Counted from the first letter of the stretch, positions 46,700 through 64,000 are shown. The stretch is DNA of 64,000 nucleotides from an uncultured Acidobacteriota bacterium (GCA_963805975.1 CAWDVR010000001.1:960001-1024000), one strand, 5' to 3'. The notes: generated from the sequence alone by a model not told the origin. Numbers and translations are program-made.

Positions 46700-46775
46700 G
46701 GGCCGTTAGCTCAGTTGGTAGAGCAACTGACTTTTAATCAGTGGGTCGCAGGTTCGATCCCTGCACGGCCTACCA
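46700..46775 (+). tRNA. tRNA-Lys (anticodon TTT)
   Basis: GGGCCGT/ACGGCCT acceptor stem, D arm AGCTCAGTTGGTAGAGC, anticodon loop CTTTTAA, T arm GGTTCGATCC, encoded CCA. TAGAAT -10 box at 46684. Confidence 0.97.
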
Positions 46776-47112
46776 GCGTTCCGCCTGATCCAGAGGGAGG
46801 ATGGCTGCCGTGCATCCAGGTTCCAGCCGGCCCTTCGCTGCCTCGCGGTCCACTGCCACTCGTCCGACCGCGCCGCACGTCCAGAGAGCTCTGTCCCATG
46901 CGCGGGCGGATGGGCTCCAGTTGCGGAGGGCGGGCATGAGGGCGGGCATGCAGCCGCCCGCGGTTCTCGTCCTCGCCATGTTGGCTCCTCGGCGGAGCGC
47001 ATTCCAGAAGGTAGCGAGCGGCGGTCAGGCTGCCCACGTCGAGCGAGCGGTGAGCGTAGCCCAGGCGAAGCCCGCACCAGGTCACCTCGCGGACCCCGCC
47101 GTCCTGCAGAGA

Positions 47113-47592
47113 ATGGAACGCCAGTCCCAGCAAGCCAAGAGCCGAAGGAACGTGCAGGCATACGCCGCCGACTTCTACAGCAATTACCGGGCGATCATCG
47201 ACGATCTCATCGACCGGGAGGGCTTCGTCGTGCGCGGGCATGCGTCGGGCAAGAAGGGCTCGGGGATGAACCAGGCGACGAAGGATGACCTGAGAAAGCT
47301 GCGCGATCGCGTCCGGGAGCGCAACGGCTCGGTGGAGCTGTCGTCGGAGGAAGACCAGGAGTGGGGAAGCAAGGCAGAGAAGGTGGAGCGCCTGCCCCAG
47401 ATGGTGTCGTCGAGCAAAGAGCTGATGTACCTCGCCTACTGTGACGCAAAGCTCAGAGCGAGGTGGGCGAGAGAGGAGCAGAAGGATCCGAGCGCCGCAT
47501 TTCTCGAGTATCTCAACGCCGCCTGGGAGCATCGCGCATGGCCAGAGGGCTGGAAGCAGTTCTACATCGGGGAGTACGAGTCGAAGAAGTGA
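47113..47592 (+). CDS. Hypothetical protein (start uncertain)
   Basis: 3' part of ORF 46801-47592 has protein-like composition. Its stop overlaps the desaturase GTG (GTGA). Confidence 0.55.
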   Translation: MERQSQQAKSRRNVQAYAADFYSNYRAIIDDLIDREGFVVRGHASGKKGSGMNQATKDDLRKLRDRVRERNGSVELSSEEDQEWGSKAEKVERLPQMVSSSKELMYLAYCDAKLRARWAREEQKDPSAAFLEYLNAAWEHRAWPEGWKQFYIGEYESKK

Positions 47593-48356
47593 GACGGGTC
47601 TTGCGCCACCCGGAGGACCGCTGGCCGCTGGCCTACACCTCGATGGTACTGGCGGTGCAGCTCGGGCTGTTCTTCGGGGTCGAGAGCCTGTGGGCGACAG
47701 CGCTCTGCGTCGCCCTGTTCCAGCCGGTGCAGGCGGTGGCCATTGCCTGCAACCACTACCAGCACCACGTCAATGTGTTCACCGTGCGCGCGCTGAACAG
47801 GGCGTACGAGGTGGTTCTCTTTCTCCAGACCGGAACTCCGCCCTTCCTGATCACCCTGCACCACAACCTGGGCCATCACCCGCACTATCTGGAGCCCGAG
47901 CAGGACACCCTCCGCTGGCAGCGCCCGGGGGGCTCGCCCCGCAGCCGGCTCGAGTGCCTGGTGAAGAACTTCGCCGGGCACCTCACCTGGACGATCGCCC
48001 TCGGCCGACGCTACCCGAAGGTCTACCGGCGCTTGAAGCGCATGAGCGCCGTCAGCCTGGTGGTGCTCGCGATCCTGGTCTACCTCGACCCTGCCAAGGC
48101 GCTGATCGTCTTCGTCGGGCCGATGCTGCTCGCCATCTTCAACGTCGCGCGGCTGGGCTACGACCAGCACGCCGGCTTGGGGCTGGACGACCACTTGAGC
48201 GCCTCGCGCAACAACGAGAGCCGCCTGTACAACCTGGTGACCTTCAACTCCGGCTACCACACGGCCCACCACGTCAAGCCGGGCCTGCACTGGTCGCGCC
48301 TGCCCGAATTCCACCGCCAGCTCCGCGACCGCATTCCGGCGGAGCTGCGCTCTTAG
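47589..48356 (+). CDS. Membrane fatty acid desaturase/hydroxylase family protein
   Basis: His boxes HYQHH, HHNLGHH, HTAHH, with TM helices. Confidence 0.88.
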   Translation: MRRVLRHPEDRWPLAYTSMVLAVQLGLFFGVESLWATALCVALFQPVQAVAIACNHYQHHVNVFTVRALNRAYEVVLFLQTGTPPFLITLHHNLGHHPHYLEPEQDTLRWQRPGGSPRSRLECLVKNFAGHLTWTIALGRRYPKVYRRLKRMSAVSLVVLAILVYLDPAKALIVFVGPMLLAIFNVARLGYDQHAGLGLDDHLSASRNNESRLYNLVTFNSGYHTAHHVKPGLHWSRLPEFHRQLRDRIPAELRS

Positions 48357-48397
48357 CCGGATCGAGGAGTTTCGACGCTCGCGGAAGGAGGGAGTCC

Positions 48398-49270
48398 ATG
48401 CACCGTACTGTCGAGCGAACGCAACCCCTATCCGCACCGCGGCAGGAGGGTCGCGTCAGTCGGGTCATGGCGGTCTCGTTCCTACTCGTCCACGTCGTGG
48501 CGCTAGGGGTCTTCCTGATCCCATTCGAGGCCTGGTACGTGGGGCTCGCGGTCGGTCTCTACTATCTGCGGATGTTCGGCGTCACCGCGGGGTACCATCG
48601 CTATTTCGCCCATCGCGCCTACAAGACCAGCCGGGCCTTTCAGTTCCTGCTCGCCTGGCTGGCGGTCTCGAGCGCGCAAAAGGGCGTTCTCTGGTGGGCG
48701 GCTCATCATCGCGAGCATCATCAGTACTCGGATCAACCAGAGGATGTCCACTCACCGGTCCAAGGCGGCCTCTGGTGGGCGCACGTGGGCTGGATCTTCG
48801 CGCCGCGCAACGTCGAAACGAACCTGGCCCGTGTACCGGACCTGGCGCGGTTCCCGGAGCTGCGCTGGCTGGAGAAGTGGCAGTTGGTGCCGCCTGCCAC
48901 GCTGGCGGCGGGGCTGCTGCTCTGGGGAGGTCTGCCGGCGTTGCTATGGGGCTTCTTCGTCTCGACGACGCTCCTGTGGCATGGCACCTTCACTATCAAC
49001 TCACTCGCCCATCTCTTCGGCAGCCGGCGGTATGCGACGCCGGACGACAGCCGCAACAACTGGTTCCTCGCCCTCCTCACCCTGGGAGAGGGATGGCACA
49101 ACAATCATCATTACTACCGGCCGGCAGCCAATCAGGGATTCTTCTGGTGGGAATTCGACCCGACCTTCTACATCCTGAAGCTGCTCTCTTGGGTTGGGCT
49201 GGTCTGGGACCTGCGCACGCCGCCCAGACGTGTGCTGGAAGCAGGGGCTCGGCAGTCCGGCTCGCGGTGA
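48398..49270 (+). CDS. Acyl-CoA (delta-9 type) desaturase
   Basis: GYHRYFAHRAY, HHREHH, GEGWHNNHH. GGAGG RBS. Confidence 0.93.
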   Translation: MHRTVERTQPLSAPRQEGRVSRVMAVSFLLVHVVALGVFLIPFEAWYVGLAVGLYYLRMFGVTAGYHRYFAHRAYKTSRAFQFLLAWLAVSSAQKGVLWWAAHHREHHQYSDQPEDVHSPVQGGLWWAHVGWIFAPRNVETNLARVPDLARFPELRWLEKWQLVPPATLAAGLLLWGGLPALLWGFFVSTTLLWHGTFTINSLAHLFGSRRYATPDDSRNNWFLALLTLGEGWHNNHHYYRPAANQGFFWWEFDPTFYILKLLSWVGLVWDLRTPPRRVLEAGARQSGSR

Positions 49271-49507
49271 GCGTGCGCCAAAACGTCCTGCGCGCAGCTT
49301 CATCCTGGCAGGTCGCGGGCAGGCTGCTCGGCCTGTCGCTCGCCCGGCGATACTCCGGGTGCTGCTCCCACACCATGGCCCGTAAAGCAGAACGTATTCC
49401 ACCGCACGCGGAGCCGGCCCTCCAAGGGCTCCCGAGCATGGACATTCCGGCATCGACTCGTTACAGTCGCTCTCGAATCAAGCGTCTCGATCAGAAAGGG
49501 GCGGGCG

Positions 49508-50737
49508 GTGAGCGAGCTCTCTCATCCGGCAATCGCTGACGCCGCGATCGGCGATCACCCGGTCCATCCCCTGATCTCGGGGCTGCGGCAGCGCCATGCG
49601 AAACTCGGTGCTCGAGCCCGGCACTTCGAGCTACGCCTGCCGGACGGCACGGCACATGCGATCGGTGGTGGCGGCGAGCCCGCCTTCACCGTCCGCATCG
49701 CCACCGACAAGGGCCTCGCCGCCATGGCGGCGTTCGACGAGCTGGCGGTGGCCGAGGCGTACATGGACGGCGATCTCGACCTCGAGGGTGATCTGCTGGC
49801 GGCGCTCAAGCACCGGCCGGTTCTCGGCGACCCGCACCCGCTCAAGTACCTGGTCTCGACCTACGTCGAGCCCTTGCTCTTCGGCCAGGTGGGGCGCGAC
49901 AAGAAGTGGATCAAGAGCCACTACGACGTCGACCCCAACTTCTTCCTGCTCTGGCTCGACGGCAAGCTGCGCGCCTACTCGCACGGCTTTTTCGGGCACG
50001 ACGACGAGCCGCTCGAGGCCGGGATGGAGCGCAAGTTCCGCTACGCCTATGACGCCTGCGGCATCCGGCCCGGCCAGCGCGTGCTCGACATCGGCGGCGG
50101 CTGGGGTTCGTTCCTGGAGTTCGCCGGCGAGCAGGGTGTGCACGTGACCTCTATCACCATCTCCGACGAGTCCGAGCGGACGATGCGGGATCTGATCCGC
50201 CGCCGCGGCCTGGCCTGCGAGGTGGTCAAGGAGCACTTCCTCGAGTACCGGTCCGCCGAGCCGTTCGACGCCATCGTCAACCTCGGGGTCACCGAGCACC
50301 TGCCGGACTATCGCCGCACCCTGGCGCAGTACGAGCGCCTGCTGAAGCCGGGCCGCCGGGTGTATCTCGACGCCTACTCGGGCGCGCGGCACGGCATGCC
50401 CTCGTTCATCTCCAAGTGGGTGTTCCAGGGCAACACCTCACCGCTCTGCCTCGAGAGGTACCTCGCCGAGGTGGCGCGCACCCCCTTCGAGGTGGTGGTG
50501 ATCAAGAACGACCGCCACAACTACTTCCTGAGCTGCAAGAAGTGGGCGGAGAACCTGGAGGCGAAGCGCGACGAGGTCATCGCGCGCTGGGGCCGGCACC
50601 TCTACCGCCGCTTCGTCCTCTACCTGTGGTCGGCGGCCAACTCGTTCGAGACCGGCACTCTTTCCGCGCACCACATGATCCTGCAACTGCCGGCGCCGGG
50701 CAGCGCCCCGCGAGCGGCCCTGGAGTCCTGGTCGTGA
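49508..50737 (+). CDS. Cyclopropane-fatty-acyl-phospholipid synthase family SAM methyltransferase
   Basis: AEAYMDG, I.SHYD, AYS, VLDIGGGWG, SITIS, EH, FISKWVF. Confidence 0.88.
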   Translation: MSELSHPAIADAAIGDHPVHPLISGLRQRHAKLGARARHFELRLPDGTAHAIGGGGEPAFTVRIATDKGLAAMAAFDELAVAEAYMDGDLDLEGDLLAALKHRPVLGDPHPLKYLVSTYVEPLLFGQVGRDKKWIKSHYDVDPNFFLLWLDGKLRAYSHGFFGHDDEPLEAGMERKFRYAYDACGIRPGQRVLDIGGGWGSFLEFAGEQGVHVTSITISDESERTMRDLIRRRGLACEVVKEHFLEYRSAEPFDAIVNLGVTEHLPDYRRTLAQYERLLKPGRRVYLDAYSGARHGMPSFISKWVFQGNTSPLCLERYLAEVARTPFEVVVIKNDRHNYFLSCKKWAENLEAKRDEVIARWGRHLYRRFVLYLWSAANSFETGTLSAHHMILQLPAPGSAPRAALESWS

Positions 50738-51558
50738 GCCCTCCGGTCCTGACCGACGCGTACGAGCAACCGGCTGTGGGCGACGCCTTCGAGGTGGCGC
50801 CCTACACTCCGCGCGAGGTGCGGTTCCACCTCCTCGGCGCGGTGCTCAACGGGATGGTCACGCTGGGCGGCCTGGTGTGGCTGTTCACCGCCGGGCGAGA
50901 GGCCTCGCTGGCCTGGCCCGGAATCCTCCTCGCCGTGCTCGCCGGCATCTACGCCGCCGACCTGGTCTCCGGCCTGCTGCACTGGGCGTTCGACACCTGG
51001 TTCGACGAGGAGATCGCCTTCCTGCGCCGCATGGTGCTGCAGGTCCGCGAGCACCACGTTTACCCGAACCGCATCTTCCGCATCAGCTTTCGCCACGATG
51101 CCGGCACGCTGTCGTGGATCGCGCTGATCCTGACCGGCCCTCTGGTCCTGTGGGCGATCGCGGTCGGCCCCGGCCCCAGCACGGGCATCGGGCCGGTCGC
51201 CGGCTACACCGTCCTGGCGGCGGCGGTGTTCAACGTCCTCCTGGTCACCATGCTCGAGTTCCACAAGTGCGGGCACCGCGCCCGCAACCCGCGCTGGGTG
51301 CGCCTGCTGCAGCGCAGCGGCCTCCTGCTCTCGGTGCCCCACCACATCCAACACCACTCGGGAAACCACGACTACAACTACTGCCTGATCAACGGCTGGG
51401 CGGACCGCACCCTGGGCCGGATCGGACTGTTCCGCGGCCTGGAGTGGCTGATCGCCCGTTGGAGCGGCGCGCGGCCACAGCGCAACGACCACCAATGGCT
51501 GCGCCGCTTCGGGCGCAAGGTCGTCGGGCGCAGCGCCGGCCGCCAGCGGGCGGTATGA
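50734..51558 (+). CDS. CarF/TMEM189/FAD4-type lipid desaturase
   Basis: DLVSGLLHWAFDTW, REHH, HKCGH, HHIQHH, NYCLINGW. GTGA overlap with the Cfa-like gene. Confidence 0.85.
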   Translation: MSPPVLTDAYEQPAVGDAFEVAPYTPREVRFHLLGAVLNGMVTLGGLVWLFTAGREASLAWPGILLAVLAGIYAADLVSGLLHWAFDTWFDEEIAFLRRMVLQVREHHVYPNRIFRISFRHDAGTLSWIALILTGPLVLWAIAVGPGPSTGIGPVAGYTVLAAAVFNVLLVTMLEFHKCGHRARNPRWVRLLQRSGLLLSVPHHIQHHSGNHDYNYCLINGWADRTLGRIGLFRGLEWLIARWSGARPQRNDHQWLRRFGRKVVGRSAGRQRAV

Positions 51559-51977
51559 GCCGGCTGGCGCAGGTGGTCGAGACCTGGCTCGCGGGCGAGC
51601 GCGAGCTGGCGCCGATCACCGCGTTCCTCGGCGTGCGGCCGGTGGCGCTCGGCGAGGGCGAGGCGCGGATCGAGCTGACGGTGGGGGAGCGCCTCCACAA
51701 CGCCATGGGCACGGTCCACGGCGGCATCCTCTGCGACCTCGCCGACGTGGCCATGGGCGCGGCCCTCGCCACCGTCACCGCCGACGGCGAGTCCTTCACC
51801 ACGCTCCAGCTTCAGATGAGCTACTTCCTGCCGGTGGTAGAAGGCCGCCTCGGCGCCCACGCCCGCGTGACCCGCCGCGGCCGCACCACCGCCCACCTCG
51901 AATGCGATCTCGAGGACGCCGAGGGCCGGCTGGTGGCACGGGCGACCTCGGTGTGCGCGATCCGGCAGGCGGGGTGA
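51555..51977 (+). CDS. PaaI family hotdog thioesterase
   Basis: HNAMGTVHGGILCDLADVAMG. ATGA overlap. Confidence 0.9.
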   Translation: MSRLAQVVETWLAGERELAPITAFLGVRPVALGEGEARIELTVGERLHNAMGTVHGGILCDLADVAMGAALATVTADGESFTTLQLQMSYFLPVVEGRLGAHARVTRRGRTTAHLECDLEDAEGRLVARATSVCAIRQAG

Positions 51978-52011: not shown

Positions 52012-52971
52012 TCAGACGCCGTTTCGGCTTTGCGTCACCATCCACTCGACGATGGCGGAGAAACGCCGAGGGTCCAGCGCGTGGTCGCGCCCAACGTCGA
52101 GATGGCGCAGCCTTTCCTCTGCACCGGCGGCTCGAAACGCCGGTCTCGCGTTGGCTACCAGATCGGCCGCATCGGCAGCGTACGGGTCGCGGTCCGAGGA
52201 CACGACGAGGAGATCCCGCGGAGCCACGCAGCGCATCAAGTCGTCGAAGTCGAAACGGCTCGCGAAGCCGGGGATGACGAGCGCCATCTCGAGGGCCGTG
52301 CCCTGCGCCAGCTTGTGCCTGTACGAGCAGGCTGCTCCACTGCAGCAGGCGAAAGCGATGCGGGTGTCCAAGGCAGCGGCAAACAGTGCCACGGTGCCGC
52401 CATGGGAATGGCCGACGATGCCCACCCGCTCGGCATCGGCCAGCTCCTGAATGGCCGTCACGGCCGTGGCGACGTCGGTCAGGAGCTTCGTCATCAGGAG
52501 CTCACCACGCACCAGCCGGTGCATCGCGTGATTGTAGTACTGGAGCCAGCCGTCCGCGGTGCCGCGTGTCCTGGTGATTTGCGGGCCGAGAGAGGCGCCG
52601 TGGCCGGCTGGGCCGCGGCGGGATTCGAAACCGACGGCGTCCGGCGCGAGAACCATCACTCCCGCACGGGCCAGGGCGGGGCCAAAGGCTTGTAGAGGGT
52701 CCCCGGCCAGCCCGGCGATCTCGCTCTTGCCCAGGGTCCACTCGCTGTTGTGCTGGTGCAAGGCCACGACCGCGGCCCTCGCCCTCGCCGCCTGCGGTTG
52801 GAACAGGAACGCCTCGACGGTGTCGCCGTCCGACGTCGGGTACGAGACGGCCCGGCGCGTGAAGCCATCCTCACGAACCTCTTCGTGCACCACGGGAGCG
52901 CCTTCGCGCCGGGGCTCTTCGAGGCCGAGGAACGTCCTGATCTCCGAGCGCAGCGCGTCCACGTTGCTCAC
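52012..52971 (-). CDS. Alpha/beta hydrolase (dienelactone hydrolase-like)
   Basis: VVALHQH..GKSE, APDAVGFESR, GHSHGG nucleophile, APR.LLVV..D, DH. Confidence 0.82.
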   Translation of the reverse strand: MSNVDALRSEIRTFLGLEEPRREGAPVVHEEVREDGFTRRAVSYPTSDGDTVEAFLFQPQAARARAAVVALHQHNSEWTLGKSEIAGLAGDPLQAFGPALARAGVMVLAPDAVGFESRRGPAGHGASLGPQITRTRGTADGWLQYYNHAMHRLVRGELLMTKLLTDVATAVTAIQELADAERVGIVGHSHGGTVALFAAALDTRIAFACCSGAACSYRHKLAQGTALEMALVIPGFASRFDFDDLMRCVAPRDLLVVSSDRDPYAADAADLVANARPAFRAAGAEERLRHLDVGRDHALDPRRFSAIVEWMVTQSRNGV

Positions 52972-53034
52972 CCGCCTGCCAGTGGCCCTAGAATGCCCTG
53001 GACCGGAGGGCAGGACCAACCAAGGGAGAACGCC

Positions 53035-53814
53035 ATGTCCGAAGACTACCCCCGCGGCCGCTTCGTGTGGCACGAGCTGCAGACCACCGACCCGGAGGCC
53101 GCCCAGGCCTTTTACACCGCCCTGATCGGCTGGGAGGCGAAGCCGATGGAAGGCTCGGACCCGCCCTACACCGTGTTCGGGATCGGCGAGGCGATGCTGG
53201 GGGGCCTGATGAAGCTGCCTCCTGCCGCGGCTGCCGCAGGCGCGCCGCCCCACTGGCTCGGCTCGGTCACCGTCCCGGACGTCGATGCCACCACGGCTCA
53301 GGCCACCGACCTGGGCGCGACGGTGCTGATGGCACCGATGGACGTCCCCGACATGGGCCGCTTCTCGGTGATCCGTGACCCCCAGGGCGCGGTGATCTCG
53401 ACCTGGCACGCGTTCGGCGAAGAGGGCGGCCGGGACGACGCGCCGGCCGTCGGCAGGTTCTCCTGGCACGAGCTCTATGCCACCGACCACGAGGCGGCCT
53501 TCGCCTTCTACTCCGCGCTCTTCGGCTGGAAGAAGCTCGAGGCGGTCGACATGGGCCCGATGGGCATCTACCAGCTCTTCGGCCGCACCGACGTGCCCCT
53601 GGGCGGCATGTTCGACAAGCCTGCCGACATGCCCGCGCCGCCCCACTGGCTGTACTACATCCGGGTGGCCGACCTTCAGCAGGCCGTGGAGAAGGTGGCG
53701 CCTCTCGGCGGCCAGGTGCTCATCGGTCCGATGGAGGTGCCGGGCGGTGACTGGATCGCGCAGTGCCTGGACCCCCAGGGCGCGGCTTTCGCACTGCACC
53801 AGACGGCCCAGTAG
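53035..53814 (+). CDS. VOC/glyoxalase family two-domain protein
   Basis: GRFVWHELQTTD..AFY..L.GW repeated, DPQGA twice. Confidence 0.9.
   Translation: MSEDYPRGRFVWHELQTTDPEAAQAFYTALIGWEAKPMEGSDPPYTVFGIGEAMLGGLMKLPPAAAAAGAPPHWLGSVTVPDVDATTAQATDLGATVLMAPMDVPDMGRFSVIRDPQGAVISTWHAFGEEGGRDDAPAVGRFSWHELYATDHEAAFAFYSALFGWKKLEAVDMGPMGIYQLFGRTDVPLGGMFDKPADMPAPPHWLYYIRVADLQQAVEKVAPLGGQVLIGPMEVPGGDWIAQCLDPQGAAFALHQTAQ

Positions 53815-58333: not shown

Positions 58334-64000
<5,667 letters not shown>

Follow-up and report, generated by a model that had tools for sequence, protein, structure and literature searches.

A Cfa-like methyltransferase and a CarF-like (PF10520) desaturase in a conserved, putative lipid-tailoring unit of an uncultured Acidobacteriota bacterium

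Introduction

A stretch of 64,000 nucleotides from an uncultured Acidobacteriota bacterium (GCA_963805975.1, CAWDVR010000001.1:960001-1024000; hereafter the window, with positions counted from its first letter) carries, downstream of a tRNA-Lys gene, a block encoding two His-box desaturases, a Cfa-like S-adenosylmethionine (SAM) methyltransferase, a CarF-like protein of family PF10520 and a PaaI-type thioesterase. Known bacterial alkyne routes use a ligase and a carrier protein, and the JamABC alkyne modules have genes for a fatty acyl ligase and a carrier protein in their cluster. Neither a ligase nor a carrier protein of the JamABC/Fsh type was found in the contiguous block.

In the furan route UfaM-UfaD-UfaO, a Cfa-family methylase acts first, and its methyl-branched product is the preferred substrate of the desaturase that comes next (PMC7380195). 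This is likely the closest described system in the way the module would work, but UfaD is a flavoprotein and UfaO a DUF1365 protein, whereas the window has a di-iron PF10520 enzyme and an added thioesterase, and DUF1365 was not found in the host genome. The BfaAB/TmpBA routes to 10-methyl fatty acids likewise join a Cfa homolog to an adjacent redox enzyme (PMC7791843); their partner is a flavin reductase which saturates a methylene group, whereas the partner here would be an oxidative desaturase. No flavin reductase is adjacent to the Cfa-like gene, whose neighbours are PF10520 and PF03061 genes, and no recurring flavoprotein was seen among the annotated neighbour clusters of related loci. The fischerazole starter module FshA/D/E/F (PMC13548996) also combines a divergent Cfa-family enzyme and a membrane desaturase with a non-cyclopropane outcome of the kind proposed below, but it acts on a carrier protein with a ligase and polyketide synthase/nonribosomal peptide synthetase (PKS/NRPS) enzymes, none of which is present in this block.

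Two activities have been reported for PF10520, formation of the plasmalogen vinyl ether and of the plant delta-3-trans bond. In reviews, its bacterial members are confined to myxobacteria, Leptospira and Alphaproteobacteria (PMC9131029, PMC8156234). PEDS1 and FAD4 have in common eight His that are essential, together with Asp100 and Phe118, while His131 is PEDS1-specific; mutation of Phe118 leaves 6% activity and mouse H131A keeps 7% (PMC8960569). According to PMC9131029, homologs lacking this PEDS1-specific ninth His did not replace CarF. In cyclopropane synthase the bicarbonate ligands are a Glu/His/Tyr triad, and the two-domain form of Cfa is linked to membrane-lipid substrates (PMC11387697).

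Conservation of the core genes

Related loci were fetched with the CarF-like protein (47 genome loci and the best 80 of 112 metagenome loci). A long-locus set comprised 59 loci in which the CarF-like gene is flanked on either side by 2 kb or more, and a dereplicated set 52 loci (90% identity of the CarF-like protein). The closest CarF-like relatives were Thermoanaerobaculia (Acidobacteriota) records with 60-84% identity, and the host most likely belongs to this class. Cfa genes were identified in 57 loci of the long-locus set, hotdog thioesterase genes in 45 and PF00487-type genes detectable with the queries used in 30. After dereplication, a Cfa gene was located beside the CarF-like gene in 50/52 loci, 48 of them within 600 bases. 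A thioesterase was found in 39/52 loci (33 PaaI-type, six double-hotdog) and a His-box (PF00487-type) desaturase in 25/52, the individual accessories being desA (12/52), desX (19/52) and the delta-9-like gene (6/52). Carriers span Acidobacteriota, Actinomycetota, Pseudomonadota, Fidelibacterota and metagenomes. At distant loci (38-53% identity; Actinomycetota, Pseudomonadota, Fidelibacterota and metagenome contigs) the pair was divergent, reversed or tandem.

Pairwise identities of the Cfa-like and CarF-like proteins co-varied (Spearman 0.80 over 47 loci, 0/999 permutations), a value inflated by kin. In a small control, two Phe-type PF10520 genes from another class had no Cfa gene within about 7 kb. 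A sigma70-like motif was present upstream of cfa in 13/52 close loci and in none of the shuffles, a count which is partly circular because the pattern was derived from the same sequences. Relatives of the delta-9-like gene were located upstream (84%, L007) or convergently downstream (about 51%), and no close ortholog of desA was found in 200 sampled genomes of the host's class. Based on the linkage, the variation in order, the co-variation and the accessory counts, the core was therefore defined as cfa, carF-like and paaI: a conserved, co-inherited three-gene unit with its own promoter-like motif, to which the two His-box desaturases are variable accessories. An earlier reading of the sequence alone (the sequence-only reading) had grouped six genes as one lipid-tailoring cluster and proposed a search for co-occurrence elsewhere. 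The genes do recur together far beyond chance, as the 50 of 52 loci with a Cfa gene illustrate, but the unit has three members and not six.

Two further observations concern the surroundings of these loci. The S-adenosylhomocysteine hydrolase gene ahcY flanks the module in 6/52 dereplicated loci, which fits heavy use of SAM; the ahcY-flanked loci are L004, L005, L007, L011, L018, L019 and L047. In the Nocardia records L039, L041 and L042 the carF-like/cfa pair lies inside a larger cluster resembling a natural-product cluster. It includes oxidoreductases (2-hydroxyacid, zinc and iron dehydrogenases, a P450 and acyl-CoA dehydrogenases), ArgC-like and PGK-like genes, thioesterases, a class III aminotransferase and a cyclase-like gene, and a cluster of this type was present in 2/201 genomes of that genus sample.

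CarF-like desaturase

The CarF-like protein scored 126 bits against PF10520 (cutoff 26.4) and 93 bits against the CarF model NF045946 (cutoff 500), a cutoff reached by none of the 122 family representatives scanned (best 346). Residues were mapped by published numbering and spacing rather than by alignment to a characterised sequence. As in CarF/PEDS1 (TMEM189), the eight His and the Asp were found at the published spacings (H83, D87, H107, H108, H177, H181, H204, H207 and H208, the counterparts of mouse H96, D100, H121, H122, H187, H191, H215, H218 and H219) and are kept in 103-104 of the 104 clade rows. The differences lie at two other positions. The ninth His (CarF H113, mouse H131; nine residues past the first HH pair) is Ile117 in the window protein, and over the 104 rows this position was Ile in 68, Tyr in 23, His in six and another residue in seven; a His four residues further on, which might substitute, occurs in 71 rows. 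The position of PEDS1 Phe118, before the first HH pair, is Val104, and Val was read in 104/104 rows. An offset control of 155 rows (family representatives plus 19 further rows) gave Phe in 102, of which 88 read His at the ninth position.

In a FastTree phylogeny of 89 rows, in which every third Phe/His row was kept and unreadable rows were dropped, the Val and Ala rows stood apart from all Phe rows with support 100; the Phe/His controls are PEDS1-like by motif only, since no characterised sequence was in the tree and none of the representatives scanned reached the CarF cutoff. The CarF-like enzyme is assigned to a 'Val' clade of its own within PF10520, and by the published residue test it is predicted not to be of the plasmalogen type. 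The sequence-only reading had suggested that the CarF homolog possibly acts on a non-ether substrate and had proposed a phylogeny against the CarF family. The tree, the replacement of Phe by Val and the missing ninth His support that suggestion, and no ether-lipid genes were found among the matches examined (see below). This clade also differs from CarF/PEDS1 in its linkage to a Cfa gene. Plant FAD4, compared by published description, offers a PF10520 precedent for a non-ether substrate and also lacks the ninth His, but its Phe is retained (PMC8960569) and Arg is the usual residue at the ninth position (PMC9131029). The label 'plasmanylethanolamine desaturase' carried by some clade members in databases is probably wrong.

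The predicted structure was a four-helix model (pLDDT 86), as for CarF/PEDS1, with a weak match to His-box di-iron enzymes. The best fold match was the hydroxylase Scs7p (Z 8.6-8.7, rmsd 5.3, 202 residues aligned), and SCD1 gave Z 4.7; these matches point to a shared fold and show no function. A sequence search of the PDB with the CarF-like protein returned no match.

An Ala subclade is nested in the Val clade and includes proteins of Acidimicrobiales and Bradyrhizobium diazoefficiens (P0141, P0145, P0147-P0149, P0154, P0155, P0157, P0160, P0162 and P0192). The Bradyrhizobium diazoefficiens protein was considered as the homolog that failed to complement carF, and this link was rejected because the reviews group the tested homolog with plant proteins.

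Cfa-like methyltransferase and thioesterase

The Cfa-like enzyme has a CMAS domain and an N-terminal lipid-binding domain (PF02353, PF25371), and its fold matched 7qos (E 1.5e-27). With the E. coli-type cyclopropane synthases (PF02353; PDB 6bqc, 7qos, 5z9o) it shares the two-domain fold, the SAM motif and two residues of the active site, Glu263 (E. coli Glu239) and Tyr339 (Tyr317). It differs from them in having Asp288 for His266 and His159 for Cys139, and it falls below all NCBIfam cutoffs. Asp at the His266 position was read in 78/80 CarF-linked rows and 11/11 stand-alone rows, while His was read in 5/5 canonical rows. The Asp rows formed one branch apart from the five canonical Cfa rows (SH-aLRT 100) in a quick tree that carried a long-branch warning and was built without the characterised UfaM, BfaB and FshF sequences. 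Judged by these residues and this tree, the Cfa-like enzyme belongs to a separate 'Asp' clade with a putatively changed catalytic base. At two loci (L165 and L166), on contigs that look actinobacterial, the CarF-like gene has as partners a Cfa of the His type and a small class I methyltransferase, and a partner replacement is possible.

The thioesterase scored 87 bits against TIGR00369 (cutoff 36.6) and aligned to PA5202. It has an HGG...D motif, which we take to be catalytic. The double-hotdog thioesterase (PF13622+PF20789) noted above fills the PaaI slot in its six loci. Some of the distant loci have added acyl-CoA dehydrogenases, an acyl-CoA ligase, an acyltransferase or a patatin, neighbours which hint at traffic through acyl-CoA.

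Host genome context

The host genome is 96% complete. It has four PF00487 genes, two of them in the block, and the Cfa-like gene is its only CMAS match at E<=1e-12. DUF1365 (UfaO) gave no match in the host genome, with a positive control in Caulobacter, and PF09989 gave none either. The sole PF02913 match in the genome was GlcD-like. The ElbD layout was absent from the three best of 15 PF07993 matches, which were an NRPS terminal reductase, a 613-aa reductase-like protein and a short-chain dehydrogenase/reductase. No serine palmitoyltransferase, an enzyme expected of a host with the fungal-type route of sphingolipid desaturase plus C9-methyltransferase, was called among the 9/19 PF00155 matches examined (seven scanned, all class I aminotransferases, and two inspected by eye). 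The check for ether-lipid genes (elbD, agps) proposed in the sequence-only reading, here extended to Ger/PlsA, therefore yielded none among the matches examined, and the host searches leave ether and sphingolipid substrates unsupported.

Two other clusters were noted in this genome. One is lipid-like and surrounds a PF00487 desaturase gene (L053; G000:C1:632000-642000), with genes for B12-binding radical-SAM proteins, one of them fused to a Rieske-type domain. The other (L059; G000:C5:276000-283000) encodes a pyridoxal phosphate (PLP) enzyme above the capreomycidine synthase cutoff (VioD, TIGR03947), which suggests a guanidino-amino-acid peptide cluster.

Proposed pathway and alternatives

Among 200 genomes of the host's class, 13 had a Cfa match at the level of the Asp clade; PF10520 was present in two of these and absent from ten, one unpublished genome among the 13 having been left out of all counts and alignments relied on. 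The CarF-like gene without any Cfa was found in 2/52 loci (L125, L133), and a PF00487 gene was located within about 3 kb in two of three wider stand-alone Cfa loci. Since the Asp-clade Cfa often occurs without PF10520 and the reverse is rare, methylation is likely the first step. On the simplest reading of these draft genomes, the Cfa clade would work on ordinary unsaturated chains and the PF10520 clade would need its product.

From the observed gene content, linkage, clades, residue changes and selection, we infer a substrate, a product and an order of steps. The accessory His-box desaturases or a housekeeping one would, judging by family, supply cis double bonds. The Cfa-like enzyme would then methylate a double bond, a chemistry established for its family; with Asp288 in place of the bicarbonate base, we propose that the cation would more likely give a branched alkene than a ring. 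With a smaller residue next to its metal site, the PF10520 enzyme would take up the branched chain, from which it would remove two hydrogens with O2. Lastly, the thioesterase may release the modified acid from its CoA ester or help to trim the acyl-CoA pool, the weakest step because the Cfa and PF10520 families act on phospholipids. UfaM followed by UfaD is a precedent for a methylase and a branch-specific desaturase (PMC7380195), and the pair may serve as a working analogue, with an unrelated desaturase. We tentatively favour this pathway, in which the module would add a carbon from SAM to an unsaturated ester-linked acyl chain and then desaturate beside the branch, so that a conjugated fatty acid with a methyl or methylene branch would result and not a plasmalogen; the chance that this pathway is correct is put somewhat short of even.

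Several points weigh against it. BfaB makes a 10-methylene product though it was selected for keeping the bicarbonate site (PMC7791843), and FshF yields both a vinyl branch and cyclopropane in vitro (PMC13548996), so that residues cannot settle the product. Both characterised PF10520 activities are near the head group (delta-1' ether, delta-3 trans) and not mid-chain. Because the thioesterase uses thioesters and the Cfa and PF10520 families phospholipids, the last step needs a link outside the block, and no thioesterase was detected in 13/52 loci. At L165 and L166 the desaturase goes with a Cfa of the canonical His type and another methyltransferase, and at L125 and L133 it stands alone. The argument for step dependency draws on draft genomes and a sample, and no assayed member of either clade was found in the literature examined.

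The position of the known PF10520 activities, all next to the head group (PMC9131029, PMC13012113), favours an alternative which we regard as unlikely, namely a FAD4-like enzyme that introduces a trans double bond at delta-2 or delta-3, close to the carboxyl end of an ester-linked chain. The Cfa-like enzyme would then methylate this trans bond or modify a bond in the middle of a chain of that lipid; both steps would contribute to one product but need not adjoin. The clade lacks the ninth His, as FAD4 does, and two loci hold the CarF-like gene without Cfa, but this account leaves unexplained why the desaturase is almost never alone while the Cfa clade often is, and why the Phe that FAD4 keeps (PMC8960569) is invariably lost. 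Most improbable of all is a plasmalogen pathway, in which the CarF-like enzyme would be a genuine PEDS1 with ether-lipid substrates and the Cfa-like enzyme would modify the plasmalogen. In its favour, the eight His and the Asp are intact, the ninth position is His in six of 104 rows, the nearby His that may substitute occurs in 71, mouse H131A kept its 7% activity (PMC8960569), and the host encodes a 613-aa reductase-like protein. Against this stand the 93 bits relative to a cutoff of 500, the separation of the clade from the Phe/His rows, the absence of PF09989, the GlcD-like character of the only PF02913 match and the lack of an ElbD layout in the three best PF07993 matches. There is also little chance that the genes merely travel together and act independently in ordinary membrane tuning, giving common monoenes and cyclopropane acids. 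Accessory desaturases do come and go, one having been deleted in the host genome, and the Cfa-like gene is the only CMAS match there at the threshold used, but the linkage kept across phyla in spite of rearrangement, the co-divergence and the active-site changes fixed in the clade of each enzyme speak against it.

To our knowledge, no gene has been assigned to the plant cyclopropane-to-cyclopropene reaction; a 2011 paper does no more than speculate on the enzyme (PMC3132707). It is conceivable, though quite unlikely, that the Cfa-like enzyme closes a ring with Asp288 as the base, the Val-clade PF10520 enzyme converts the cyclopropane to a sterculic-type cyclopropene, and the thioesterase frees the inhibitory acid, the module being a mobile pathway by which bacteria make cyclopropene fatty acids in free form. 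The inferred order of steps, the enlarged pocket (Val104), the thioesterase and a distribution that is patchy and mobile (1/40 relatives, 3/200 class genomes, 2/201 in the genus of L039) are all in keeping with it, and the cyclopropanation site retains Glu263 and Tyr339. On the other side, His266, a bicarbonate ligand of cyclopropane synthases, is lost, cyclopropene acids inhibit desaturases (PMC3132707) and would be awkward beside two to three desaturase genes, and the literature search found no report of a bacterial cyclopropene fatty acid. If true, it would be a third activity of the PEDS1/FAD4 family and the first gene for this reaction. We consider it very unlikely that the product is a furan, made by the PF10520 or a His-box enzyme through oxygenation of a methyl diene, or an alkyne made by oxidation of an alkene, two products which the sequence-only reading had listed. 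A methylase and a desaturase do start the furan route (PMC7380195), and the hydroxylase Scs7p as best fold match leaves room for oxygenation, but the known partners are missing: DUF1365 gave no match in the genome, the block lacks a flavoprotein of the UfaD type, and for an alkyne both the ligase and the carrier protein are absent from a block that has no room for them.

Organization of the locus

The features are given in Table 1. The six genes which the sequence-only reading placed downstream of tRNA-Lys are all real, based on their frames, overlaps and Pfam/NCBIfam scans. Four-base start/stop overlaps were read at 47589-47592, 50734-50737 and 51555-51558. All five enzyme genes are under purifying selection (dN/dS 0.11-0.54 in 20 pairwise comparisons with the relatives' loci). 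In Pfam and NCBIfam scans no enzyme of the block reached the cutoff of a named equivalog, and the ESM Atlas offered generic family names only, for desA and cfa. The 'delta-9-type' desaturase is a PF00487 match, but that label is a reading of its His boxes and no curated family is above its cutoff (NF049918, 82 bits, cutoff 400).

Table 1. Features identified in the window (positions from its first letter)
Feature	Position	Strand	Remarks
tRNA-Lys(ttt)	46700-46775	+	ARAGORN; left edge of variable slot ending near 53005
orf1	46801..47592	+	263 aa from 46801, or 159 aa from 47113 (47113-47592); no family
desA, His-box membrane desaturase	47589-48356	+	255 aa; PF00487 E 5e-28; accessory
delta-9-like His-box desaturase	48398-49270	+	290 aa; PF00487 E 7e-19; accessory
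desX relic (fourth desaturase)	49344-49376	-	start codon fused to C-terminal motif
sigma70-like promoter motif	49439-49467	+	TGGACA, 17 bases, TACAGT; ahead of core
Cfa-like SAM methyltransferase (core)	49508-50737	+	409 aa; PF02353 E 1e-41, also PF25371
CarF-like di-iron desaturase (core)	50734-51558	+	274 aa; PF10520 E 2e-36
PaaI-type hotdog thioesterase (core)	51555-51977	+	140 aa; PF03061; TIGR00369 above cutoff
alpha/beta-hydrolase	52012-52950	-	weak Pfam matches only
glyoxalase	53006-53801		shared with G001
fatty acyl-AMP ligase-like/NRPS-like frame	58334-64000		read by eye

The block occupies a variable slot after the tRNA gene. In the same-genus genome G001 the same tRNA is followed by FIST and histidine-kinase genes and then by the same glyoxalase gene. 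PF10520 was found in 1/40 relatives, 0/7 of the same family and 3/200 genomes of the host's class. A tRNA gene was present in 1/59 long related loci, and tRNA-Lys is therefore a local landing site and not a property of the module. Of the integration hallmarks, neither a repeat of the tRNA end at the right edge nor an integrase was seen in the slot. The third-position GC content (GC3) of the slot genes is 0.80-0.95, like that of the flanks, except for orf1 and the delta-9-like gene. Plasmids gave no CarF-like match, with Cfa matches at most 31% identical, and no RNA run was listed among the sequencing runs that carry the locus.

In contigs of the public DNA runs X1, X3 and X4 the tRNA end is joined directly to desA, without orf1, and one X1 contig has desA and the delta-9-like gene followed by about 1.13 kb of extra sequence before cfa. 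The C-terminal motif present in 23/26 desX proteins was found once in a six-frame translation of the genome, at the relic. From this motif, fused to a start codon, and the extra sequence in X1 it follows that the host genome lost desX, the fourth desaturase, by a near-complete internal deletion; it gained orf1 separately. The ORF of the sequence-only reading is thus present, but its start is probably at 46801, since a homolog aligns across all 263 aa, and it is a passenger unrelated to the lipid module. No Pfam or NCBIfam family and two homologs only were found for it, and it occurs in 0/52 related loci. In orf1 as in its homolog P0278, a conserved part of 160 aa is preceded by a low-complexity N-terminus in which VQR/LQR words recur; such words may be reminiscent of eCIS-associated proteins.

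The alpha/beta-hydrolase gene shares the variable slot, and its DNA was matched by essentially none of the related loci. The frame at the right end of the window starts as fatty acyl-AMP ligase-like and runs into NRPS-like sequence, with an apparent frame shift after about 330 residues; unrelated genes lie between it and the lipid module.

Significance

No description of the PF10520-Cfa pair or of these two clades was found in full-text searches of the literature, in which few subscription papers were covered. The module would work like known methylase-plus-redox tailoring pairs, yet the features compared above set it apart from PEDS1, canonical Cfa, Ufa, Bfa and carrier-protein systems. It adds a further bacterial PF10520 clade, found in four phyla or more, whose fixed genomic partner points to the substrate, so that a likely third PF10520 activity could be tested directly with only two genes. 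Three Nocardia strains are cultured carriers in which the lipid can be sought now. The accompanying, unstudied Cfa clade bears on lipid biomarkers of soil Acidobacteriota and on the biocatalytic functionalisation of alkenes.

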